Below are positions 2,014 through 63,458 of a stretch of DNA of 64,000 nucleotides, in pieces. Source of the DNA: Candidatus Paceibacter normanii SCGC AAA255-P19 (GTDB lineage: Bacteria; Patescibacteriota; Minisyncoccia; Minisyncoccales; Paceibacteraceae); NCBI GenBank assembly GCA_000398025.1, contig ASKX01000003.1, positions 6,143 through 70,142 on the forward strand, read 5' to 3'. Under the pieces are notes generated by a model. That model saw only the letters and a list, made by a program, of their open reading frames with translations, was not told the origin of the DNA and did not search any database. Positions within the stretch are counted from its first letter, which is position 1. Each line of letters starts with the position of its first letter. The position numbers were made by a program, and so were the translations under genes.

Positions 2014-3723
2014 ATGGCTCAAAAAATTTTAAAATTTTCTTTATCAGTTTTTTTGATTTTAGGGATGACTTTGAACAGTCAGATAGTTCTAGCTTGGACC
2101 GGTCCCCCCGGTCCCCCGCCCAGTCCTTGTCCGGCTGACTGGCCCGGCTGTTCTCCTCCTCTTAATGTTAGCTCGGCTGACCAAACCAAAGAAGGAGCTT
2201 TAACCGTTAAATCCTTTATTTACGGTGATGATATTCGGTTAGGATATTGGTCAGAGTCGGGCGAGGTAACGGTAGCTGGTGATATTGAAATTCATGACGA
2301 CTCAGAAAACCAAACTTTTCTCTTAGATGGTGATACTGGTAGATTGACCATTGGCGAATCAATCATCCTTACCCCTCGTTCTTCGCCTCCGATTGCTACC
2401 TGTTCAGCTAGCATTAAGGGTATGGTTTATTTTGATAGCGATGATGACCAACCCTATTATTGTAACGGTTCCGACTGGGTAAACTCCAAAGGTCCCACCG
2501 GTCCCACCGGCCCGACTGGTCCTGCCGGTCCAACCGGAGAGGGTAGCGTGGTCCCAGGTCCCACTGGCCCGACTGGTGCTCCCGGTCCTCCCGGAGGATT
2601 AGGTCCTACTGGGTTAACCGGCGCCACTGGCTCCACTGGCCCGACCGGCCTCACTGGCCCGACCGGTCCTACTGGCCCAACTGGCGCTGACAGTACAGTG
2701 CCAGGCCCAACTGGTCCTACCGGTCCTACTGGCTCAACTGGCCCGACTGGCCCAAAAGGGGCTACTGGGAATACAGGAGCTATTGGGGCTACAGGAGTAA
2801 CCGGACCTACCGGCCCAACTGGTGCTGACAGCGTAGTGCCTGGTCCCACTGGCCCAACTGGATCTACCGGCCCTACTGGGCCAACTGGCGCAGACAGTAC
2901 TGCCCCTGGACCTACCGGGTCAACTGGTCCAACTGGGCCAACTGGCCCTACCGGCGCTGATAGTATAGTACCAGGGCCTACCGGACCGACTGGTCCAACT
3001 GGTCCCACTGGCTCTTCTGGTCCTACTGGCTCTACCGGCCCAACTGGACCAGTTAATCCCGACGATTACGGTCGCTATAACGTGTCCGCTACTCTTTATG
3101 AAGGCACTTCTACTCTTTCTTCCATATATCAAGAAGACATAGGTTCAGACTGCGAAAGCGATAATTATGTTTACGGTGTTTTTAATTCTGGTACTTTGAA
3201 GTGCCGGGCTGATCAAGGTATTACTTCTGAATCAGATCCCCAAGTAGGCACTCTTACTAGTGGAAAATGGTGTACCACCAATGGCAGTACAGTTAATTGC
3301 ACCAGTGATGCCCCCAGCGGTGGAGGATATGATAGCTGTTCAGATATTGAGACAGATTGTAATTATGTTAATGAAAGTGGAGACGATATGAGTGGAGATC
3401 TCAAATTTACCCACTCTGATGCTGATATAAAAGCCCCTTCTTCTACTCTTTGGCTTCAGTATGGCACCGGGCAAAAAACTCACATTGATGGCGGGCTGGA
3501 AGTTGATGAATATCTTGAGATCCCTACTATGTCCTCTCGATCAGGCGTAGATGAGTCTGCCTATGTTCACGGTGATCACGGTACTTATAATTTAGGCGTT
3601 ACTTGTAGCTCTAGCAATCGGGGGAGGATTGGACTTAGCTACAATAATGATAAAAGCACTCACTCTCTCTGTTTTTGCGGAAAATACGAAGGTAGTTACG
3701 AATGGATGTGTTTGGTTTGGTAA
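2014..3723 (+). CDS. Secreted collagen-like (Gly-X-Y) repeat protein with Cys-containing C-terminal globular domain
   Basis: Signal-like N-terminus [20 protein letters not shown]. Long run of [13 protein letters not shown]-type triplets, broken by one GEGSVVPG and four GADSxxPG motifs. Non-repetitive C-terminal domain of about 230 aa. Confidence 0.8.
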
Positions 3724-13508: not shown

Positions 13509-14729
13509 ATGCCTACTTATTCTTATATTGCTAAAACCCTAAAAGGAGAAGAAAAGACCGGAACTTTGGAAGCCGAAGATAAGTATCAGTTAGCCAGAAC
13601 CCTAAAACAACAGGGTTTAATTTTAATTAAGGCAGAAACAGAAGAGGAGGGGCCAAAAAGGAGAAAATTAGCTATTGCTATTCCTTTTTTTGGCGGAGTT
13701 TCTTTGACAGAAAAAATGTTCTTTACCAGGAATCTTCAGGTAATGGTAGCTGCGGGGCTTCCCTTGCCCAAGGCCTTGGAAACCTTATCTTCCCAAGTAA
13801 AAAGTAAAAAGCTTAAGGAAGCTTTGCTAGATATTAGAGAAAGAATTATTAAAGGTCATAATTTTTCAGAATCTTTAACCAAGTGGCCAGGTATCTTTTC
13901 TGAACTTTTCCAAAATATGATTAAGGTAGGCGAAGAAGCAGGAACTTTAGAAGAGTCCTTAAGGGTTTTATCTCAGCAAATAGAAAGAGAGCATAGTTTA
14001 AAGTCGCAGATAAAGGGAGCAATGATTTATCCGGCTGTAATTATTTGCGCCATGATTGGTATTGGTATTTTGATGCTGATTATGGTCGTGCCTCAATTAG
14101 CTGAAACCTTTGAAGAGTTGAGCATCGAACTTCCCATAACCACCAAAATTGTCATCGGTTTCGCCACTTTTTTAGTTGAGAAATGGTATTTGTTAATTCT
14201 AATTTTGGCCTTTCTCATTTTTCTTTTATGGCAAGCAATGAAAATTGAAAAGGGAAAGAAAATAACGGACAAGCTATTATTAAAAATTCCAATCATTTCT
14301 TCTATTATTAAAAAAACTAATTTAGCTTACACTGCCAGAACCCTCAGTTCTTTAATTTCCGCTGGCGTGCCAATCGTTAAATCGTTGGAAATTACTTCGG
14401 GAACTTTAGGAAATATTTATTATAAAGCAGCTATTACCGAGGCGGCTGAGAGAGTCAGGAAAGGAGAAAAGTTGTCCGAGATTTTAAAGCCTTACCGTGA
14501 CATTTATTCTCCAACTTTTATCCAAATGGTGGCGGTTGGTGAAGAAACTGGAGAAACTTCAACTATTCTAGCTAAGTTGGCTGATTTCTTTGAAGAAGAA
14601 GTAGGCCGGACCACCAAAAACCTAGCTTCGGTTATTGAGCCGGTTTTAATGATTATTATTGGAGCAGCCATTGGATTTTTTGCCGTTTCAATGATTCAGC
14701 CGATGTACTCTATGCTGGGAGCCATATGA
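13509..14729 (+). CDS. pilC: Type IV pilus platform protein PilC/GspF family
   Basis: 406 aa with two GspF repeats and three TM segments. Ends QPMYSMLGAI, as is typical of PilC. Confidence 0.9.
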   Translation: MPTYSYIAKTLKGEEKTGTLEAEDKYQLARTLKQQGLILIKAETEEEGPKRRKLAIAIPFFGGVSLTEKMFFTRNLQVMVAAGLPLPKALETLSSQVKSKKLKEALLDIRERIIKGHNFSESLTKWPGIFSELFQNMIKVGEEAGTLEESLRVLSQQIEREHSLKSQIKGAMIYPAVIICAMIGIGILMLIMVVPQLAETFEELSIELPITTKIVIGFATFLVEKWYLLILILAFLIFLLWQAMKIEKGKKITDKLLLKIPIISSIIKKTNLAYTARTLSSLISAGVPIVKSLEITSGTLGNIYYKAAITEAAERVRKGEKLSEILKPYRDIYSPTFIQMVAVGEETGETSTILAKLADFFEEEVGRTTKNLASVIEPVLMIIIGAAIGFFAVSMIQPMYSMLGAI

Positions 14730-16846
14730 GGAAATCAAACGGTTTTACTTTTATTGATGCAATGGTAGGCACATCACTTGTGCTTATTGTTTTTTTAGGT
14801 ATTTTCGGTGTTTATCAATTAGGTTTAAAAGTAGTGAGTCAGTCCAAGGCCAGAATAACTGCTACCGCTCTAGCTAATCAAAAAATAGAACTGGCTCATA
14901 ATTTACCTTATGATGACGTGGGAACAGTTGGCGGCATTCCCTCAGGCACCATCCTAGAAACTGAAGATGTCACCAGAAACAATATTGATTACACTGTTAA
15001 AACCACTGTTGTTTATATTGATGATCCTTTTGATGGCGTAGTACCCAACGATACCCTGCCGGCTGACTATAAAAGAATAAAAGTTAAAACCTCTTGGTCT
15101 GGTAGGTTTGAAGGAGAAGTCAACTTGGTAACTGATATTGTTCCCAAAGGAATAGAATCTGAGGCTGGCGGAGGGACTCTTTTGGTTTCAGTTTTTAATG
15201 CTGAAGGTCTGGGCGTCCCTCAAGCAGATCTTCACCTAGTTAATGAAGAAGTGACCCCTCCTATTGATGCTTGGTATCAAACCGATAATTTTGGCGATCT
15301 AGTTTTGCCGGGTGCTCCGGTTTCTGTTGAGGGCTATCAAATTACGGCCAGCAGAACCAGTTATAGCACTGCCCGAACTTATGGGTCCGAAGAAGTGGTT
15401 AATCCTTCAAAGCCCCATGCCTCAGTCTATGAAGGCGACTTGACGGAAATTAGTTTTTCCATAGATAAAGTAAGCAATTTATCAATTGATACTGTTTCGC
15501 CGGTGGGAGTGGCTAGCTTTTTTGATTCTTTTTTGGACGAAACAAAAATTGCTGAAAAATCCCATATAGTGGTAGCTTCAGGTCAGGTAGAGTTAGAACC
15601 AAGTCATTATTCCAACATAATTCTGCCGGTAGCGGGAAGAGTAAAAGTAGAATTTGTCAGCGAGGATGCTAGTCAGGATAATTCTTTCGGTCTTTACTTA
15701 CCCCATGAAGAAGAGATTTTTCCTTATGCTGATTCTGAGCATTTAAATCCCGGTGATTCTTATGATTTGGGTCTTTTTACTGAAGGGACAGAAATAGGTT
15801 TTTTTCTAGCCACTCAACCTGAATATCAAGGACCAAGGTGGTACACTGATTCCAGTTTGAATTCCGATGGTTACGATCACGTTAGAATAACCCAACCTGG
15901 TTCTTCTTCTTGGAAGCTGGAATGGGAAGATACTGAAGGGGGTGGCGATGAAGATTTTGATGATCTGATAGCACTGATGACTCTAACGGCTGAAGGTTAT
16001 TTTAGTTCTGGCTATTTAATTTCTACTACGGTTATTCCTGAAGAATTAACTGGTTGGGAAAAACTTTATTTTACTGATGAGGAGCCAGCTGCTACCCAAA
16101 TAAGTTATCAAATTTTATATTTTGATGGAGGAGGTTGGATTTCTATTCCCAACAGCGACTTGCCAGGCAACGAGGTTGGTTTTGGGCTAAGCCCGGTTGA
16201 TTTATCAGGCCTTTCCGTAATTACTTATCCTGAAATCAAATTAAAAGGAAACCTTTCTACTGTTGACCTCACTGTTTCCCCAATTCTTTACGATTGGCAG
16301 GTCAGTTGGAAAACCGCCAGTCCGGTTCCCGTAGCTAATACCCCCTTCAAGTTAGAAGGGGCAAAAACCATTGGCACCGACGGTGAAGGAGGGCCGGTTT
16401 TAAAATATTCTCAAAACTATATTACTAATGGCTTCGGTCACCTGGAAATTATTAATTTAGAGTGGGATTCTTATAGTTTTTATGTTGACAAAGCCGCCAC
16501 TGGCTTAGATTTGATTGAAACTCAACCCACCGAACCACTCGATCTTTTACCCGACACTACCCAACCTGTCACCTTAATCTTGGAAGCTGAAAACACTCTT
16601 TTGATTACTGTTCAGGATGCTTCTACTCTAGAACCAATTTTTGCTGCTTCCTGCCGAGTCTACAATTTCTCCTTATCTTATGATAAACAGCAGCCAACCG
16701 ACGAAGATGGACAATCTTTCTTTATTCCCTTGGAAGCGGCCACTTACGACTTAGAAATTGGAGCTTCCGGTTACCAAATTTATAATGGCCAAGTTTGGGT
16801 TTCTGGCGACGTCACCCTAACCGTTAACTTAACTAAATTACCATGA
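14726..16846 (+). CDS. Giant prepilin-type N-terminal domain protein (706 aa) with DUF4114-like and carboxypeptidase-regulatory-like modules
   Basis: MRKSNGFTFIDAMVGTSLVLIVFLGIF is a class III signal. GFFLATQ...DGYDHVRI...GGGDEDFDDLIALM resembles DUF4114. ATGA overlap with pilC. Confidence 0.7.
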   Translation: MRKSNGFTFIDAMVGTSLVLIVFLGIFGVYQLGLKVVSQSKARITATALANQKIELAHNLPYDDVGTVGGIPSGTILETEDVTRNNIDYTVKTTVVYIDDPFDGVVPNDTLPADYKRIKVKTSWSGRFEGEVNLVTDIVPKGIESEAGGGTLLVSVFNAEGLGVPQADLHLVNEEVTPPIDAWYQTDNFGDLVLPGAPVSVEGYQITASRTSYSTARTYGSEEVVNPSKPHASVYEGDLTEISFSIDKVSNLSIDTVSPVGVASFFDSFLDETKIAEKSHIVVASGQVELEPSHYSNIILPVAGRVKVEFVSEDASQDNSFGLYLPHEEEIFPYADSEHLNPGDSYDLGLFTEGTEIGFFLATQPEYQGPRWYTDSSLNSDGYDHVRITQPGSSSWKLEWEDTEGGGDEDFDDLIALMTLTAEGYFSSGYLISTTVIPEELTGWEKLYFTDEEPAATQISYQILYFDGGGWISIPNSDLPGNEVGFGLSPVDLSGLSVITYPEIKLKGNLSTVDLTVSPILYDWQVSWKTASPVPVANTPFKLEGAKTIGTDGEGGPVLKYSQNYITNGFGHLEIINLEWDSYSFYVDKAATGLDLIETQPTEPLDLLPDTTQPVTLILEAENTLLITVQDASTLEPIFAASCRVYNFSLSYDKQQPTDEDGQSFFIPLEAATYDLEIGASGYQIYNGQVWVSGDVTLTVNLTKLP

Positions 16847-17496
16847 GGCGAGGGTTTACCCCTCACCAATTTTCAATGAGGATAACAAGAATTTTAAAAA
16901 CTGCCACAAAAATTGGTGCGGGGTTTACCCTAATTGAGGTTATCGTTACCATTGTTATTTTTAGTTTGGCTTTGGGAGCTATTTCTAGCTTTGTGGTTTT
17001 GGGCTACAAAACCCAAAGCTATACCTTCCAGCAGTCAGTAGCTATTGGCGAGGCCAGAAAAGGAATAGAAACAATGGTTAAAGAAATAAGAGAAGCCAGA
17101 TTAGGAGACGACGGCTCTTATATTATTGAGATGGCTCAAGATTTTGAATTTATTTTTTACTCAGACATTGATAAAGACGAAGACACCGAAAGAATTAGAT
17201 ATTTTGTTGATGGAGAAAATTTTCAAAAAGGAGTAGTAGAGCCTACTGGCTGGCCAATTGAATACCCTTCAGCTAATGAAAAAATTTATACTCTGTCCCA
17301 ACATGTTAAAAACCTACCTCCCATTTTTCATTATTATGATGGCTCGGGTAACGAATTAACTGAGTTACCAGCTAGATTGAAAGACACTAAACTAATGAAA
17401 GTTTATTTGGTGATTAACGTTAATCCTAATCGGCCGCCTCAGGATTTTATTTTAGAATCAAGCGTCCAAATCAGAAACCTAAAAACCAACTTATGA
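16843..17496 (+). CDS. Prepilin-type pseudopilin with interrupted N-terminus
   Basis: The canonical GFTLIEVIVTIVIFSLALGAI follows a 23-codon in-frame insert after a first MRRGFT. Alternative start at ATG 16876 (MRITRILK). Confidence 0.75.
   Translation: MRRGFTPHQFSMRITRILKTATKIGAGFTLIEVIVTIVIFSLALGAISSFVVLGYKTQSYTFQQSVAIGEARKGIETMVKEIREARLGDDGSYIIEMAQDFEFIFYSDIDKDEDTERIRYFVDGENFQKGVVEPTGWPIEYPSANEKIYTLSQHVKNLPPIFHYYDGSGNELTELPARLKDTKLMKVYLVINVNPNRPPQDFILESSVQIRNLKTNL
16862..16920. mobile_element. 59-nt MITE-like insert inside the pseudopilin gene
   Basis: 10-bp inverted termini CACCAATTTT (16864..16873) and AAAATTGGTG (16909..16918). They are bracketed by the exact 10-bp direct repeat GGGTTTACCC (16852..16861 and 16921..16930). 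Confidence 0.5.
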
Positions 17497-24214: not shown

Positions 24215-24575
24215 ATGGAATTCTTTAAAAAAGAAAAAAAAAGAACCCAAGGATTTAAAAGAAGTTTTGGCTCAATTTAAGGGTTTGGAGAAAAATTTGG
24301 AAAAGCTTTCCCAGGACCTAGAAACTCTAAAAAAAGAAAGCCAGTTTTCGGTTCAAAAAATGGGGGTGGTCAGATTTAATCCTTTTTCAGAAATTGGCGG
24401 CGACCAAAGCTTTTCTGCGGCTTTCCTAGATGGAAACGATAACGGATTGGTGATTACCAGCCTTTATACTCGGGAAGGAAATAGGGTTTACGGAAAACCA
24501 ATTAAAAAAGGAGCTTCTGAGCATTCTTTATCCCAAGAAGAAAAAGAAGCAATATCAAGAGCCAAGGGCTCGTAA
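24215..24575 (+). CDS. DUF4446-like protein with an apparent frameshift in an A9 run
   Basis: ATG 24215 gives MEFFKKEKK. Removing one A from 24234..24242 joins it to EPKDLKEVLAQFKG...VVRFNPFSEIGGDQSF...SLYTREGNRVY (ORF 24267..24575). Confidence 0.6.
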
Positions 24576-24690
24576 TTTCCAATTTCCAATTTCCAATTTT
24601 CAATAAATGTCACAATTTCCAAACCGTTTAATTGATAATTGATTCATTGAAAATTCATTGTAAATTGATAATTGTAAATTGATAATTTCA
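24574..24690. repeat. CAATTTY heptamer arrays in opposed orientation (R2)
   Basis: AATTTCC x3 plus AATTTTC at 24574..24601. Reverse-orientation units (ATAATTG, AAAATTC, TAAATTG) at 24631..24690. Contains the 14-mer TTGAAAATTCATTG. Confidence 0.7.
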
Positions 24691-31074: not shown

Positions 31075-31968
31075 CTACTTGGCAGCGTTGGGCGCGTTGG
31101 AGCGTTGGTGTTCTCGCAGGATCCGTTGGACCTCTGGGCAATTCGATTCCATCTTTGCCCAGGCCTTGAAAAGGTGGGGTACCGGGTCAAGACTGCTCTG
31201 AGTCAGCCGACCCAGAGAAACCATTTGCCCTTCCCTTACCCCGAATTTATTTTCGGGGTCGAGCACCTTTTCGTAGATAGCCGTCTTCTCCTTTGGTTTG
31301 ATAAGGATGGTGATGCCGAATGATGCTTGGACGGTTTGTCCATTTGTCATCTTGTGGCGCAGGCTCAGGAAATACATCCTGATCCTGATTTCCTCCTCAA
31401 TGACGCCAAGGAGTACCTTTGTCGCGATGCCATCGTTCCAGGGGGTTATATCACCCTCCAAAGCATCAACAACCACTTGCCGATGGGCCCACCGCTTTTG
31501 GAACCAATCAGGGGTCTTGGAGAGTAAAAGCCAATCGTCTGGCAAATTCCCTTTCACCTTGTATCCACTATCAAAGTGGATTTTAGGTTCCCCTTTTGGT
31601 TCCTGGGATGGTATGACCTCTACCCGTATGATTTCACCAGGGACGAAATCCCCAATAATGTCTACGAGTCCGCCTTTTTCCAGTACTTCCGGGAAAGGCG
31701 TATGAGCCATAGTGCTGAAAAATTCGGCGGCGCCCTTCCAGTCGTCTGCTTGAGCGAAGATCAGCCTTTGGGTCGATGCCGACCCTGGTTGTGGTCTCTG
31801 GACTATTGGTCTCCGGACTGTTGGTTTCTGGACTGTTGTCCTCGGCGTGGTGACTGCCGGTTCTTTCACGCCAGTCTCTTCGGCTAGTGCCTGCTGAGCC
31901 AGCTTGTGTCCTTGCTCCTTTGCTTCCCTCGCTGTCTTTCTACCCCTTTTGTTATTGTTGTCGCTCAT
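31075..31968 (-). CDS. Hypothetical protein with basic Lys/Arg/Pro/Thr-rich N-terminal tail; no family recognised
   Basis: 297-aa ORF with visibly higher G+C than its neighbours. Strong SD GAAAGGAGGTAAC lies 9 nt before the ATG. It has its own promoter and terminator. Confidence 0.7.
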   Translation of the reverse strand: MSDNNNKRGRKTAREAKEQGHKLAQQALAEETGVKEPAVTTPRTTVQKPTVRRPIVQRPQPGSASTQRLIFAQADDWKGAAEFFSTMAHTPFPEVLEKGGLVDIIGDFVPGEIIRVEVIPSQEPKGEPKIHFDSGYKVKGNLPDDWLLLSKTPDWFQKRWAHRQVVVDALEGDITPWNDGIATKVLLGVIEEEIRIRMYFLSLRHKMTNGQTVQASFGITILIKPKEKTAIYEKVLDPENKFGVREGQMVSLGRLTQSSLDPVPHLFKAWAKMESNCPEVQRILREHQRSNAPNAAK

Positions 31969-32117: not shown

Positions 32118-32146
32118 ATTATATACAATTATTTCGATTTTGTCAA
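32118..32146 (-). promoter_or_regulatory. Perfect consensus sigma70 promoter (minus strand)
   Basis: Complement of 32141..32146 is TTGACA. A 17-nt spacer follows. Complement of 32118..32123 is TATAAT. Confidence 0.7.
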
Positions 32147-32168
32147 TAGCTCTTGACAAAACCGAAAT
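32131..32168. promoter_or_regulatory. Palindromic operator-like element spanning both -35 boxes
   Basis: ATTTCGATTTTGTCAA-tagctc-TTGACAAAACCGAAAT, with arms complementary at 15 of 16 positions. The 9-mer TTCGATTTT recurs at 32088..32096. Confidence 0.6.
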
Positions 32169-32181
32169 AAATAATTATAAT
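32153..32181 (+). promoter_or_regulatory. Perfect consensus sigma70 promoter (plus strand)
   Basis: TTGACA at 32153..32158, 17-nt spacer, TATAAT at 32176..32181. Lies about 40 nt upstream of ATG 32220. Confidence 0.7.
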
Positions 32182-32219
32182 TTAGATACGTAATTTGTTA
32201 ATTGAATAAGGAGGTAAAG

Positions 32220-33737
32220 ATGGAAAAGGCTAGATTGCCGTTTTTCTTAGGCGACCCTCGGAAAAGATTTGACTTAATTTCTTCTTATAATCGCAGAGTC
32301 GTTGGTCTCTGTGATGGGCAGTTTTGTTTCTCCTGTAATCCTGATGAGAGGGGAAAATTAGTGGGCTTTGATGGAGGACCGTTAGAGGTAATGCTTCAGC
32401 TTCAGTCAAGGACAAACCCTTTTGGACCTCCAAGAGAATATTACCTTGCCCATTTAGTGTTTGTTCCGGAGCAGGAGAAGGAAGAAATAATTACAGGAGC
32501 AGCGTCCGATGAAGCAATTGAGTTCGACGCTTCCTACAATGCCGTTCTCTATATCTGCGGAGGGACAAGGGTTTTGGTAGATCCAGGATCGATGGCTCTT
32601 ACCAATGGAAGTGTAGAAGGGTTGGCTAAATTAATTGAGGTCTACCGTCCAACTGTGGTAATAATTACTCACGGCCACCAGGACCACTGGCGAAACTTAG
32701 ATCTGTTGGAAAAGTTGGGAATACCAGTTTACCTTACCCCTTTGCCCAATAGATTGATTTCCCACACCGCCAGGATAGAGAAGAATTACGCTTTGCAGAA
32801 GATATTAAGAAAGGGAAGAGCTCAGCTGATCGACCCAGGAGACACAATAGACCTGGGAGAGATGAAAATTTTCACCTTCCCAGTTCCTCATACTATCCCT
32901 GAAGCAATGGGTCTATTGCTAGCAGGGGAAAGGAGAGCCGTGCATCTTGGCGATTTCAGGTTAGGTGAAGGAGTGGAAAAGGCTGAAATAATAACCACTC
33001 TGCGAGCCATTGCCAAGAGAAAGGTTGACTTCGTTGCCGTTAACGTAGTCAACTGCCACCTGGAAGGTTACGCTGAGCCTGAGTCGATGGTCGTTAACTC
33101 TATCACCAATGTTATGGTAGAGGCGAAAGGGAGAGTGGTTGTAACTTGCTTTTCCACTAACGTGGAAAGGATAGGAAGTATAGCGGAAGTGGCCCAGGCC
33201 CAGGGAAGAAATGTGTATTTCTTGGGTACCGGCATGCGACGCGCTCACCTGGAGTTAGCCCGAGAAGGATTGGAGTACGGAGGTGATGAAAACGATATCT
33301 CCCAGCCCAACTCCCTAATTTTTGTCAGCGGCTGTCAAGCCGAGGAAAATTCTATCCTGGAAAGGACATTGGAAGAGAGACCGCCTTACCAACCACAGGA
33401 ATCGGATACGCTCGTTTTTTCGAGCAGAGACGTTCCAGGGAACGAAGTCCCCATCAGAGCACTGATCCAGAAACTTACTCCAAAAGTGAGCACAGTGTTC
33501 ATCTATAAAGGGGAGAGAATCAGGATCGGCTTGGAAGAGAACCAAAAGATTAAGGAAATTGATTGTCATGCCACCGGGCATGGAAAGGAAAAGGATACTG
33601 AGTTAGTGATTCTAGATACTCTTCAACCAAAAGAAGTTCTTCCTATTCCTCAAGAAGGGGAAGGATTTGAGGCCTTCAAGGAGATGGCTGAAGGAGTAGG
33701 GATTAAAATAATCAGTGAACGAGTTGTTGAAATTTAA
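32220..33737 (+). CDS. RNase J-like MBL/beta-CASP nuclease with ~110-aa N-terminal extension
   Basis: SD AAGGAGG lies 5 nt before ATG 32220. MBL motif THGHQDH, DPGD, beta-CASP-like middle, and C-terminal CHATGHG motif. N-terminal GLCDGQFCFSC patch. Confidence 0.75.
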   Translation: MEKARLPFFLGDPRKRFDLISSYNRRVVGLCDGQFCFSCNPDERGKLVGFDGGPLEVMLQLQSRTNPFGPPREYYLAHLVFVPEQEKEEIITGAASDEAIEFDASYNAVLYICGGTRVLVDPGSMALTNGSVEGLAKLIEVYRPTVVIITHGHQDHWRNLDLLEKLGIPVYLTPLPNRLISHTARIEKNYALQKILRKGRAQLIDPGDTIDLGEMKIFTFPVPHTIPEAMGLLLAGERRAVHLGDFRLGEGVEKAEIITTLRAIAKRKVDFVAVNVVNCHLEGYAEPESMVVNSITNVMVEAKGRVVVTCFSTNVERIGSIAEVAQAQGRNVYFLGTGMRRAHLELAREGLEYGGDENDISQPNSLIFVSGCQAEENSILERTLEERPPYQPQESDTLVFSSRDVPGNEVPIRALIQKLTPKVSTVFIYKGERIRIGLEENQKIKEIDCHATGHGKEKDTELVILDTLQPKEVLPIPQEGEGFEAFKEMAEGVGIKIISERVVEI

Positions 33738-49375: not shown

Positions 49376-50101
49376 TTATCCGCGAGCTACTGCTAAACCA
49401 ATAATTTCTTTGGAGCCGGCTTTTTTAAGGACTCGGGCGCACTCGGTCATGGTAGCGCCGCTGGTATAAACGTCGTTAATTAAAAGAATCTTTTTTCCTC
49501 TTACTGTCTCCGGGTTTTGGCAGAGAAACGCCCCTTTAATGTTCTCTTCCCTTTCCTTATCTGAAAGCTCTACCTGAGGTAGAGTATTTTTTATTTTTAC
49601 CAAAACATTATTCAACAGGGGGATTCCCCAAAATTGGGCTAAATTGTCACCAATCTCTTCTGCCTGGTTAAACCCTCGCCACCTTAATCTCTTTTTTCCC
49701 AGAGGCACAGGAACTAAAAAGAAATCAGTAAAGCTTGGCGGCTTCTCGATCAATTGAAAGTGTTCTATTATTAAAGAAGCTAAAGGTTCAGCTAGTTCCT
49801 TAATAAAGGGTTCGTATTTAAACTTTTGGATGAGTTTTCTAGTTAAAGGCTTTTGATAGTCGGCAGCAAAATATAAATCAGCCAGTTCAGCCGTGGAATA
49901 TGGTCGAAGAGGATAAATCCTCTTCTCCTCCCTTCGCTGTCGCTCGGGATTTTGATGAAAACCGGAAATCTCCAAGCATCCTTGGCAATCGTCGCAAAGA
50001 TAGCTACCTTCTTTTTGACAGCCAAGGCATTGTTTCGGAAAAAAGAGATCAAAAAGATAATTTTTAATTCCTTTCCCCATCGAAATAAATTGAAAATTCA
50101 T
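49376..50101 (-). CDS. comF: ComF-family phosphoribosyltransferase-like competence protein with in-frame R1 insert
   Basis: N-terminal zinc ribbon CLGC...CDDC. C-terminal PRT motif ILLINDVYTSGATM. Alternative start at M8 (50080). Confidence 0.8.
   Translation of the reverse strand: MNFQFISMGKGIKNYLFDLFFPKQCLGCQKEGSYLCDDCQGCLEISGFHQNPERQRREEKRIYPLRPYSTAELADLYFAADYQKPLTRKLIQKFKYEPFIKELAEPLASLIIEHFQLIEKPPSFTDFFLVPVPLGKKRLRWRGFNQAEEIGDNLAQFWGIPLLNNVLVKIKNTLPQVELSDKEREENIKGAFLCQNPETVRGKKILLINDVYTSGATMTECARVLKKAGSKEIIGLAVARG
49903..49950 (-). repeat. R1 unit inside comF, read in a different frame
   Basis: Minus strand reads ATCCCGAGCGACAGCGAAGGGAGGAGAAGAGGATTTATCCTCTTCGACC. It translates as PERQRREEKRIYPLRP. 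Confidence 0.75.
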
Positions 50102-50135
50102 TGAAGATTGAAATGAATTGAAAATTCATTGAATA
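50083..50135. repeat. R2-type AT-rich repeat/hairpin cluster in the comF/pilM2 divergent region
   Basis: The 14-mer TTGAAAATTCATTG occurs twice here and once at 24647..24660. Overlapping palindromes AATTCATT/AATGAATT. Confidence 0.65.
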
Positions 50136-57200: not shown

Positions 57201-57692
57201 ATGAAAAGAGGTTTCACTTTAGTTGAGCACGAACGCTTGAAAAGCGGAGGGCGAAACGAGGGGTTTACCCTCGTTGAGCTACTGGTAGTGATTACCATTA
57301 TTGGAATCTTATCCACTATGGTTTTGGTTTCTCTGGGCGGAGCCAGAGCTAAGGCCAGAGATGCTAAAAGAGAGTCAGATATTAGGCAGATTGTTTTAGC
57401 TATGGAATTAGATTACTCAGACGATGAGAAGTATTCTCAATATACTCCTGACGAATGGGGAACAGTCAGAAAAATTTCCAAAGCTACCGGAAACTATTTA
57501 AATCCTGTTCCTATAGACCCAAAAGGCGCAGCTTACAGCTGGATAGATAATATTTCTGGTACTACCGGTTGCGATAATCAGAGCTACTGTCTTTTTGCCG
57601 AATTGGAAGCTGAAGTTGGCTATTTTTTTGGCGGCTCCAAAAAAGGAACCAGAAAATTAGAGGAGGCGCCAACAGGTTGTCCTTGTTGGTAA
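57201..57692 (+). CDS. Type IV pilin with duplicated GFTLVE leader segment
   Basis: MKRGFTLVE-HERLKSGGRNE-GFTLVELLVVITIIGILSTMVLV. C-terminal Cys pairs. In-frame TTG 57237 is an alternative start. Confidence 0.8.
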   Translation: MKRGFTLVEHERLKSGGRNEGFTLVELLVVITIIGILSTMVLVSLGGARAKARDAKRESDIRQIVLAMELDYSDDEKYSQYTPDEWGTVRKISKATGNYLNPVPIDPKGAAYSWIDNISGTTGCDNQSYCLFAELEAEVGYFFGGSKKGTRKLEEAPTGCPCW

Positions 57693-58841: not shown

Positions 58842-59610
58842 ATGATTATATTAATTCATCTTTTTTATTTTCCTTCTTGGCTTGGCAGCGGGATCCTTTT
58901 TAAACTGTATTATTTACCGCTTACAAACTGGTGAAGGGTTTTTAAAAGGCAGGTCTTTTTGCCCTTATTGTAAACACGAATTATCCTGGCCAGATTTAAT
59001 CCCCGTCTTTAGCTTTCTATTATTGAAAGGCAAATGCCGCTATTGCCAAAAACCCATCTCTATCCAATACCCCTTAGTAGAGCTCGCCACTGCCCTAATT
59101 TTTTTATTAATTTTCGTATTCAATATTCAATATTCTATATTCTACATTCTTATTTCCTGCTTTTTGATAATTATTTTTGTTTATGACTTAAAACACTACA
59201 TTATTCCCGACAAAATCGTCTATCCAGCCATCATTCTTACCTTAATTTTCAATTTCCAATTTACAATTTTCAATCAATTTTCAATTTTTCAATTTTCAAT
59301 TTTGAGCGCAGTTGGAGCAGCGGCCTTCTTTGGAGCATTGGTCTTAGTTTCCCGGGGAGAATGGATGGGTGTTGGCGATATAAAACTGGCCTTTTTGATG
59401 GGATTGGTTCTGGGTTGGCCGAACATTCTGGTGGCTTTGTTTTTGGCTTTTTTTATCGGCGCTATAATAGGATTAGGGTTAATCATTTTGGGAAAGAAAA
59501 CCTTAAAATCAGAAGTGCCCTTCGGCCCCTTTCTGGTTGCGGGCACATTCATTGCTCTATTTTGGGGAGAAAAGATTATTAATTGGTATATTGATTTATT
59601 TAGTCGATGA
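58842..59610 (+). CDS. pilD: Prepilin peptidase (A24 family) PilD, N-terminus out of frame at a T6 run
   Basis: ORF 58882.. begins LAAGSFLNCIIYRL, with zinc motif CPYC...CRYC and GVGDIKL. ATG 58842 (MIILIHLF) joins it if one T of 58861..58866 is removed. Confidence 0.8.
59116..59157. repeat. ATATTCN heptamer run inside pilD
   Basis: GTATTCA-ATATTCA-ATATTCT-ATATTCT-ACATTCT-TATTTCC, encoding VFNIQYSIFYILIS. Confidence 0.6.
59244..59304. repeat. CAATTTY heptamer array (R2) inside pilD
   Basis: AATTTTC, AATTTCC, AATTTAC, AATTTTC, AATC, AATTTTC, AATTTTTC, AATTTTC, AATTTTG. It encodes [18 protein letters not shown]. Confidence 0.75.

Positions 59611-61122: not shown

Positions 61123-63458
<2,336 letters not shown>

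Follow-up and report, generated by a model that had tools for sequence, protein, structure and literature searches.

A 64,000-nt stretch of the genome of Candidatus Paceibacter normanii SCGC AAA255-P19 (contig ASKX01000003.1; this whole stretch is called the window below) carries a gene for a type IV minor pilin that has a short hairpin in its prepilin-peptidase motif. Our analyses indicate that this hairpin is very likely a 65-nt non-autonomous mobile element which inserted into the motif with duplication of a TTTA target, and which belongs to a family whose full-length members encode a small GIY-YIG protein. A preliminary description, made from the letters of this DNA, had already taken the feature for a miniature mobile element, bounded by inverted repeats and flanked by a target-site duplication (TSD), in frame at the G-F-T of the class III signal. 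That core reading was right; the dimensions of the element have changed, and the GIY-YIG-linked family, with its copies in housekeeping genes and structural RNAs, had not been recognised. Its parts are as follows.

16859..16923, + strand: inserted element, 65 nt (CCCCTCACCAATTTT, a 35-nt loop, AAAATTGGTGCGGGG)
16859..16873, + strand: left arm, a 15-nt terminal inverted repeat (CCCCTCACCAATTTT) that fits the family pattern CCCCNCACCNNTTTT
16909..16923, + strand: right arm (AAAATTGGTGCGGGG), with 14 of its 15 bases complementary to the left arm
16874..16908, + strand: loop, 35 nt, with an in-frame ATG at 16876-16878
16855..16858, + strand: left copy of the TTTA TSD (4-nt repeats are found in the family, and orthologue L141 has a single TTTA)
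16924..16927, + strand: right copy of the TTTA TSD, on the same grounds
16852..16861, + strand: first copy of a 10-nt direct repeat, consisting of host GGG, TTTA and the element tip CCC; it codes for the first G-F-T, predicted to be non-functional

The repeats that first drew attention to the region were confirmed at exactly the positions reported for them, both by reading the sequence and with a repeat finder. An exact direct repeat, GGGTTTACCC, is present at 16852-16861 and 16921-16930, the copies being spaced 69 nt apart, and CACCAATTTT at 16864-16873 has its exact reverse complement, AAAATTGGTG, at 16909-16918. As GGGTTTACCC is itself nearly palindromic, the inverted repeat grows to 23-nt arms (16851-16873 and 16909-16931) that are 87% complementary. 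The element had been described as 59 nt long with 10-bp arms and a 10-bp duplication. We revised these values by comparing 118 family members, whose tips are runs of C and runs of G; this placed the boundaries at 16859 and 16923 and left 15-nt arms with one mismatch and a TTTA duplication. This is because the members show CCCC.../...GGGG tips and because their duplications, where visible, usually measure precisely 4 nt (33 of the 118 are flanked by an exact direct repeat of this length). The 10-nt repeats represent the TTTA duplication plus host GGG and CCC that coincide with the element tips. The insert thus has the properties of a miniature inverted-repeat transposable element (MITE): it is 65 nt long, has no transposase gene (the sole reading frame through it is that of the host pilin), has terminal inverted repeats, and is flanked by TTTA on both sides where L141 has it once.

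The hairpin is predicted to be stable as RNA (-33.7 kcal/mol, z = -3.7) and as DNA (-17.1 kcal/mol, z = -4.0), and a fold as good was obtained from none of 200 shuffles of the same stretch. It matched no Rfam family at the gathering score; there were only sub-threshold matches to generic hairpins (E 0.15-0.4). The G+C content of the window is 40%.

The consequences of the insertion for the pilin depend on where the prepilin is cleaved, and the relevant features are listed here.

16843..17496, + strand: type IV minor pilin (pseudopilin) gene, 217 aa, whose ATG overlaps the upstream stop codon (ATGA)
16921..16938, + strand: true class III signal, G/FTLIE (cleavage at the slash); its first GGG is the right tip of the element, and the 10-nt repeat has its second copy here (16921-16930)
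14726..16846, + strand: upstream pilin-like gene, 706 aa, of the same pilus operon

The translation of the open reading frame (ORF) at 16843..17496 starts MRRGFTPHQFSMRITRILKTATKIGAGFTLIEV. That it is a type IV pilin is indicated by the class III signal, the hydrophobic helix and the PilB, PilC, PilM and PilN genes nearby; the order in the operon is PilB, PilC, the 706-aa pilin-like gene, the minor pilin, a 472-aa gene, PilM and PilN, and the same order was seen at orthologous loci. Named relatives of the protein occur in Nealsonbacteria, Pacebacteria and Wildermuthbacteria, which places the window in a Patescibacteria genome. The insertion adds 69 nt, or 23 codons, with no stop, and extends the leader from 4 residues (MRRG) to 27. 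Deleting the 69 nt restores MRRGFTLIEV, a canonical short prepilin leader. The Pfam N_methyl motif falls at residues 26-47, that is, at the second GFT, in agreement with the earlier proposal that this is the real cleavage site. Orthologous proteins can be aligned from this second signal on. The first G-F-T precedes the polar sequence PHQFSMRITR rather than a hydrophobic helix and should therefore not be cleaved, whereas the second keeps both F-T-L-I-E and the helix. The G/FTLIE site and the entire mature pilin are thus predicted to be unchanged, and the insertion is probably tolerated, or near-neutral, because the prepilin peptidase removes the leader. This neutrality is an assumption, as the modeled stem may lower expression.

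Two in-frame starts are available to the gene, one at 16843 and one in the loop at 16876. It had been suggested that the second could restore a leader of normal length, but it would give 16 residues rather than 3-4, and it looks instead like the leftover start codon of a nuclease gene (see below). Among the orthologues, the P0002 ORF starts inside an element, showing that internal starts are in use as well. In the window, we expect that translation would still begin at 16843, coupled to the upstream stop codon.

The insertion can be seen directly by comparison with an unoccupied site, which the preliminary description had expected to find among orthologues. In L141, a 75%-identical orthologue, the DNA reads accATGAGGCAAGGGTTTACTTTAATCGAA, while the window reads accATGAGGCGAGGGTTTA, then the 65 nt, then TTTACCCTAATTGAG. 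The empty site in L141 is ATGAGGCAAGGGTTTACTTTAATCGAA, with a single, unoccupied GGGTTTAC. An empty allele of the window locus itself would join GGGTTTA straight to CCCTAATTGAG. On these sequences, L141 and the window read as a textbook empty/filled pair. Most of the 120 best homologues are 192-194 aa long (217 minus 23) and start M(K/R)xGFTLIE, and the leader is shorter than 12 residues, mostly 3-4, in 100 of 116 orthologues. Leaders of 12 residues or more occur in the other 16, and the closest relatives of nearly every one of these proteins have leaders of 3-4. This implies that the leader of the minor pilin gene was hit independently at least about ten times.

Wherever the DNA of a long-leader orthologue was fetched, the extra residues proved to be translated hairpins. 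In L001 the leader DNA is ATGA-CCCCCCACCGCTTTT...AAAAGCGGTGGGGGG-TTTACC and in L002 it is ATGACCCCGCACCTTTTCT...AGAAAAGGTGCGGG-ATTCACC. A sister family occupies the leaders of L142, L143 and L144; its arms are CCCCGTTAGA(G/A)AT in L143 and L144 and are decayed, without the CCCC tip, in L142, and the duplicated flanking sequence is TAAA in L144, as against TTTA in both L142 and L143.

These comparisons bear on two explanations that involve no mobile element. Exact 10-nt direct repeats 69 nt apart, together with the presence of a single copy in the window, are what might be expected of local duplication, replication slippage or an assembly artefact around the GGGTTTACCC repeat. The intervening sequence, however, is no copy of neighbouring DNA and it matches a family whose members come from many projects, assembled independently of one another, which makes an origin of this kind barely credible. 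A stem-loop specific to the pilus operon, acting as a translational attenuator or thermosensor, would account for a strong stem right after the start codon, for the hairpins at the gene starts of several orthologues (L001, L002) and for the co-variation of the arms among them. It would not account for the lack of the hairpin in about 86% of orthologues, including the closest ones, nor for the same arms at dozens of unrelated places, whether in genes, in RNAs or in intergenic DNA, and the flanking TTTA duplication and the empty site favour insertion. We consider regulation of this type a very improbable origin of the hairpin, which may nevertheless have been co-opted secondarily.

That the element belongs to a family was established by scanning species-representative genomes (one per species) with CCCCNCACCNNTTTT-N(25-50)-AAAANNGGTGNGGGG. 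The arm pattern with a loop of 25-50 nt was found in 57 stretches, whereas about 0.1 would be expected by chance on our own estimate (596 Gb x 26 spacings / 4^24). The repeat arrangement in the window is therefore not a chance occurrence, and the other copies for which the preliminary description had recommended a search do exist. Their hosts are mostly metagenome-assembled genomes (MAGs) of Patescibacteria, Parcubacteria or Saccharibacteria, with a few Omnitrophota, Planctomycetota and others. Conserved arms with perfect or almost perfect pairing (CCCCNCACC..TTTT / AAAA..GGTGNGGGG) are common to its members, the loops are free, and the short members measure 55-80 nt. The 4-nt duplications are TTTA (9 cases), TAAA (8), and also TATA, TTGA, CAAG, CACA, TGAA and others. 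A scan of eight of the loci returned no Rfam family covering the hairpins.

Several genomes hold 3-5 copies on different contigs, some of which share larger flanks. In the UBA2105 genome (contigs DCYR01...), the loops of L022 and L023 are 88% identical and their flanks differ, which supports amplification. Two MAGs presented another picture. Identical copies in an Omnitrophota MAG (L008, L019, L035, L039, L043) share flanking sequence, in either orientation, as do 83%-similar copies in a Psychracetigena MAG (L057, L059). Because the flanks are shared, these copies are parts of a larger repeated unit.

About one quarter of the copies lie inside reading frames, in frame and free of stops. Those with Pfam domains on both sides of the copy are given below by locus.

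L006: in-frame copy in UvrA
L007, and L058 at the same site: in-frame copy in the catalytic domain of GluRS
L010: in-frame copy in DnaE, just before the PHP domain, with TTTA as TSD
L015: in-frame copy in a Mur ligase
L017: in-frame copy in the adenylation domain of LigA
L026: in-frame copy in trigger factor
L051: in-frame copy in an FAD oxidoreductase
L053: in-frame copy in a radical-SAM protein

Three translations of the arms recur: TPHHF...KSGGG, PPTTF...KVVGG and PAPFF...KKWCGV. Pilin leaders were occupied in the window, L001, L002, L029 (twice), L054 (twice), L056, L075, L084, L098 and L142-L144; the insertions in L075, L084 and L098 are full GIY-YIG elements at GG(A/G)TTTA. In L056, the element tip G and the duplicated TGAA recreate a GTG start at the original position.

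Copies were also located in structural RNA genes, namely RNase P RNA (L040 and L045, as well as L009 and L012, which share flanks) and 23S rRNA (L011). The RNase P RNA genes of the candidate phyla radiation (CPR) were recurrent hosts (L040 310-388; L045 877-931; L009/L012/L049; L066, L069, L117; L080, L102, L105, L125). At one site in this RNA (GCAAGGCCGNG, element, AGTGCCGC) there is a bare hairpin or a GIY-YIG element, depending on the genome; another site is directly 5' of the conserved AGGAAAGTCC, and the UBA6201 genome seemingly has three inserts in its RNase P RNA gene. No flanking duplication was seen at the RNase P RNA sites. GIY-YIG elements adjoin the 5' ends of tRNA genes as well (tRNA-Ala in L081, L083, L134 and L062; tRNA-Ile in L037). 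There, the terminal GGG(G) doubles as the first bases of the tRNA, and the flanking direct repeats are 7-9 nt (e.g., CCTATAG) compared with the usual 4. Some members of the family and its sister family (L087, L116, L052, L097, L122) are inserted at TTGA within TTGACA-like boxes, where they duplicate TTGA, so that the box to their right is still a complete TTGACA. The elements may thus also favour, or be tolerated in, promoter -35 sequences.

The copies inside RNase P RNA and 23S rRNA raise the question of whether the arms have their role in RNA, in the manner of rRNA intervening sequences, with RNase III excising the stem or the RNA accommodating it as an extended helix. Such a role would account for the survival of copies in rRNA, in RNase P RNA and beside tRNAs; the pilin copy would then be incidental and might throttle translation. 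The stability of the window stem as RNA is in keeping with such a role, as is the G-tip that supplies the 5' GGG(G) of four tRNA-Ala genes and one tRNA-Ile gene. Published work on the CPR fits as well: rRNA genes have been reported to contain numerous short inserts of no assigned class, along with GIY-YIG ORFs inside inserts that are not introns (PMC11270868), and large helix extensions have been reported in RNase P RNAs (PMC8172020). Each of these studies noticed pieces of the present family without the connection between them. RNA processing, however, explains neither the spread of the elements nor their 4-nt target duplications. Cleavage of the stem in the pilin mRNA would part the start codon from the gene, and the stop-free in-frame copies in UvrA, GluRS, LigA and other proteins point to an insert that is translated, not removed. 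As the origin of the hairpins, an RNA-level role is in our view quite improbable, but it is largely complementary to insertion of a mobile element and does not exclude it.

The preferred reading, a mobile hairpin, requires a source of mobility, and a candidate was found in longer members of the family. Searches with half-sites recovered members of ~285 nt with the same tips. Full-length members, at about 280-380 nt, have one small gene between their arms, which encodes a GIY-YIG protein of ~85 residues, UPF0213/Slx1-like. In L054, an ORF of 84 aa lies within CCCCCCACCACTTT-ATG...stop...AAAAGTGGTGGGGGG, and its product matches Pfam PF01541 (GIY-YIG) with E = 4e-18. L010 provides a full-length example within its duplication, TAAA-CCCCGCCTCCATTTTTT..ORF..AAAAAATGGGGGCGGGG-TAAA, and L133 has the arms ACCCCCGCACCAATTTT / AAAATTGGTGCGGGGGT, the same arm as in the window; the right arm of the window hairpin is identical to an arm of this element. 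The longer elements therefore share window-type ends and encode a GIY-YIG nuclease that is the putative mobiliser. The 57 loci include ten or eleven GIY-YIG ORFs, the majority of which lie within or beside a hairpin.

Assignment of these proteins to the GIY-YIG superfamily is based on the PF01541 match, conserved motif positions and matches in the PDB. Y5, Y16, G18, R26, H30 and E62 are invariant in all eight aligned proteins, and we take them to be the GIY, YIG, Arg and Glu positions of the catalytic motif. Among solved structures, BH0048 and EF2693 (1zg2, 1ywl), both UPF0213 proteins, come closest, followed by the structure-specific endonuclease SLX1; I-TevI was also matched.

The linkage of arms and gene was examined in metagenomes with an alignment of three GIY-YIG sequences, which found at least 556 relatives. 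Among the best 80, the ones examined for arms, 64 are bracketed by inverted repeats of 12-26 nt with (A/T/G)CCCC(N)CAC tips; when, as a control, the right-hand window was displaced by 200 nt, inverted repeats were found for 1 of 80. The start codon is typically 0-30 nt from the left arm, or inside it. GIY-YIG was the only gene observed between such arms, although transposases nearby were not systematically surveyed.

These data are relevant to the possibility that the hairpins are mobile and the GIY-YIG gene is a passenger, that is, a free-standing, homing-endonuclease-like gene that invades loops again and again while the arms are served in trans by a DDE or HUH/Y1 transposase. GIY-YIG enzymes are known as nucleases, not transposases, and several DDE families of insertion sequences typically duplicate 4 nt of their target. 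Some arrangements also fit a passenger: in L028 the GIY-YIG gene is between two complete hairpins and not inside one, GIY-YIG genes without arms exist at L037 (second copy) and L049 (5023-5292), and 16 of the 80 metagenome genes have no arms. A passenger would not be expected to lie precisely between matched arms in 64 of 80 cases against 1 of 80 in the control, nor to have its start codon within the left arm or so near to it, as in a single unit, and it would hardly be the one gene seen between such arms. Taking both sides together, we regard it as unlikely that the gene is a passenger.

We infer instead that the GIY-YIG nuclease mobilises the elements and that the short hairpins derive from full-length members by internal deletion; the window hairpin looks like such a derivative. 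This is because its loop resembles the 3' end of a GIY-YIG gene and its ATG is placed like the start of the nuclease. The 35-nt loop aligns to GIY-YIG 3' coding tails (best L074, 20/24 nt), with a score that 2 of 300 shuffles reach, and the ATG is just 3' of the left arm, as is the nuclease start codon in full-length elements. The loop is probably a remnant of the deleted gene, comprising its start codon and 3' coding tail.

Some full-length elements in pilin genes showed a further arrangement. In L029 (1107-1955), L075 (from 701) and L088 (from 701), the GIY-YIG ORF has no stop and continues, in frame, across the right arm and into the downstream pilin (an example of the fused junction is ..KKRLGLSST..GAG/FTIIELILT). 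Going by these sequences, the fused nuclease is formally a prepilin 'leader', and the prepilin peptidase could release it.

We hypothesize that the GIY-YIG protein acts on the folded ends of the elements, perhaps cutting the base of the hairpin or cruciform, and that it makes a 4-nt staggered cut at short, A/T-rich targets resembling T(A/T)(A/T)A. Slx1-type GIY-YIG relatives cut branched DNA. The window element landed in the Phe and Thr codons of the prepilin motif, and a target of the form GGG-TTTA-CC may have been favoured because it mimics the abutted tips of the element (GGGG-TTTA-CCCC); GGGTTTACC is a candidate pilin target for GIY-YIG cleavage. There are two potential reasons for the prepilin motif being a hot spot, and they are compatible with each other. 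The first is that its GG(G/A)-TTT-AC sequence resembles the abutted-tip junction. GG(G/A) precedes 6 of the 9 TTTA duplications, and 5 of the 9 lie in G-F-T codons. The second is the removal of the leader by prepilin peptidase, which may make extra residues cheap in genomes with hardly any intergenic DNA.

Several observations weigh against this explanation. The window has a single copy of the element: no second copy was found in its 64 kb by blastn-short, whole- or half-site regular expressions or an inverted-repeat scan, and phmmer against all six-frame ORFs found no GIY-YIG gene there. No near-identical ORF-bearing elements at unrelated sites were present among the 64, the near-identical pairs being from the same locus, and some copies outside the CPR are embedded in a larger repeat. 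A flanking repeat is missing in 62 of the 118 family members and is 5-9 nt long in 8, particularly at tRNA 5' ends; a fixed 4-nt staggered cut therefore cannot explain every case. The stem of -33.7 kcal/mol begins 8 nt past the ATG of the pilin gene and could depress its translation. The open frames among the orthologues are partly an ascertainment effect, because the orthologues were found through protein searches. To our knowledge, GIY-YIG nucleases do not carry out strand transfer, and extra functions of the host or the element may be needed.

More broadly, the elements might constitute a previously unrecognised class of prokaryotic mobile element, with a lone gene for a ~85-residue GIY-YIG protein, inverted repeats of 12-26 nt with CCCC/GGGG tips, and a nuclease that recognises its own folded ends and T(A/T)(A/T)A targets, among them mimics of the abutted tips such as GGG-TTT-ACC in prepilin signals. 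Such a class could be a major source of peptide, rRNA, RNase P RNA and tRNA-adjacent inserts in the CPR. We offer this wider proposal tentatively, as somewhat nearer to doubt than to acceptance. The hairpin family, GIY-YIG elements flanked by inverted repeats and in-frame palindromic elements of the CPR were all undescribed in the searchable literature, most subscription journals being outside its reach. The family and its candidate mobilising enzyme thus appear new, while the element itself, an insertion similar to MITEs and to the Rickettsia palindromic elements (RPEs), is ordinary in kind.

Whatever the enzyme, the window is a natural experiment on the length and polarity that a prepilin leader can tolerate: a gene that needs exact N-terminal processing has taken up 23 extra codons and kept its cleavage site. 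If a tiny GIY-YIG protein does move these elements, it would represent a new, minimal transposition system and a ready explanation for the reported, unexplained inserts in CPR RNAs. It would also offer a compact nuclease, specific for a structure or a sequence, that might find practical uses.

Other repeats in the window were noted during this work. The left terminus of the element had been linked to 'R2' repeats that contain CAATTTTCAAT. We rejected this link: the 11-mer has 31 matches versus 5.6 expected, but these lie in tandem arrays unrelated to the hairpin family, and CACCAATTTT arms occur in unrelated genomes (L014, L050, L133), so the likeness is probably a coincidence. The (CAATTTY)n heptamer arrays are located as follows.

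24574-24687: heptamer array, R2
50089-50127: heptamer array, R2
59243-59303: heptamer array, R2
61956-61990: heptamer array, R2

An inverted arrangement was seen for the arrays at 24574-24687 and 61848-61990; the former is just upstream of ORF 24701. A second pilin gene (57201..57692) starts MKR-GFTLVE-HERLKSGGRNE-GFTLVE-LLVV (57201-57290) and has an imperfect 18-nt direct repeat (57210-27 and 57261-78, 13/18). The copies of this repeat enclose CACGAACGCTT-GA-AAAGCGGAGGGCG, which looks like family arms that have decayed (cf. AAAAGCGGTGGGGGG, the arm of L001, which is translated KSGG). An earlier insertion, with a longer duplication, may have left this relic. At 2491-3051, within ORF 2014..3723 (569 aa), 9-nt repeats (GGNCCNACN, Gly-Pro-Thr-like triplets) form a long run, which suggests that this ORF encodes a collagen-like repeat protein. 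A 64-nt palindrome at 32118-32181, with 32-nt arms that are 81% complementary and have no spacer, lies between the divergent ORFs 31075..31968 (-) and 32202..33737 (+).

Comparison with known systems places the family near several of them. I-TevI, the Seg proteins and SLX1/UPF0213 have the same catalytic fold and conserved motif positions as the present GIY-YIG proteins. Homing endonucleases, however, have a long DNA-binding domain, act at one cognate site through homology-directed repair and have no terminal inverted repeats, whereas the present proteins are a bare ~85-aa domain, nearest to UPF0213 and SLX1, between inverted repeats at many sites. We therefore rejected membership of the classical homing endonucleases, in view of the many unrelated sites, the ~85-aa size and the terminal inverted repeats in 64 of 80 cases. 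The intervening sequences (IVSs) of 23S rRNA are likewise stem-forming inserts in structural RNA helices that have ORF-bearing and ORF-less versions, and they were long ago proposed to be mobile. Instead of GIY-YIG proteins, their ORFs encode members of the S23 ribosomal-protein-like IVP family, and we know of no report of IVSs in frame inside protein-coding genes.

Repetitive extragenic palindromic (REP) sequences, including bacterial interspersed mosaic elements (BIMEs), with their REP-associated tyrosine transposases (RAYTs), and the palindromes of IS200/IS605 are also hairpin repeats that are thought to be read as folded DNA by the small enzyme of a related single-gene element. The hallmark of REPs is a GTAG or CGTC tetranucleotide beside the palindrome, together with a Y1 HUH transposase; membership was rejected because the present tips are CCCC/GGGG and the gene between the arms is GIY-YIG. 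IS200/IS605 elements insert 3' of a fixed tetra- or pentanucleotide with no target duplication and have subterminal hairpins; they were also rejected, as the present family has varying direct 4-nt duplications (TTTA, TAAA, TATA, TTGA, CAAG and others) and terminal arms. MITEs derived from insertion sequences (Correia elements, Nezha, IS630/IS5-type) share several features with it: small size, terminal inverted repeats and a TSD, no transposase gene, longer relatives that have the same ends and, in several of the genomes scanned here, more than one copy. They differ in that the longer relatives here encode only the ~85-aa GIY-YIG protein, not a DDE, serine or tyrosine transposase, and in that many of the present copies are without a detectable duplication.

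RPEs are short palindromes that spread in a reduced genome and are found in frame in genes, including essential ones, in RNA genes and in intergenic DNA, with the encoded peptide tolerated at permissive positions. Members of the present family are similarly in frame and stop-free in protein genes (the window pilin, UvrA, GluRS, DnaE, LigA, trigger factor) and occur in RNA genes. They differ from RPEs in being shorter (55-80 nt), in having CCCC/GGGG tips and often a 4-nt duplication, and in having a candidate autonomous GIY-YIG partner; we know of no mobilising enzyme established for RPEs. The likeness is an analogy only and no membership is claimed, as the arms, size and host phylum differ. 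Overall, the family seems to do in the CPR what RPEs do in Rickettsia, having colonised essential genes (UvrA, GluRS, DnaE, LigA), RNase P RNA, 23S rRNA and the borders of tRNA genes in genomes with almost no spare DNA.

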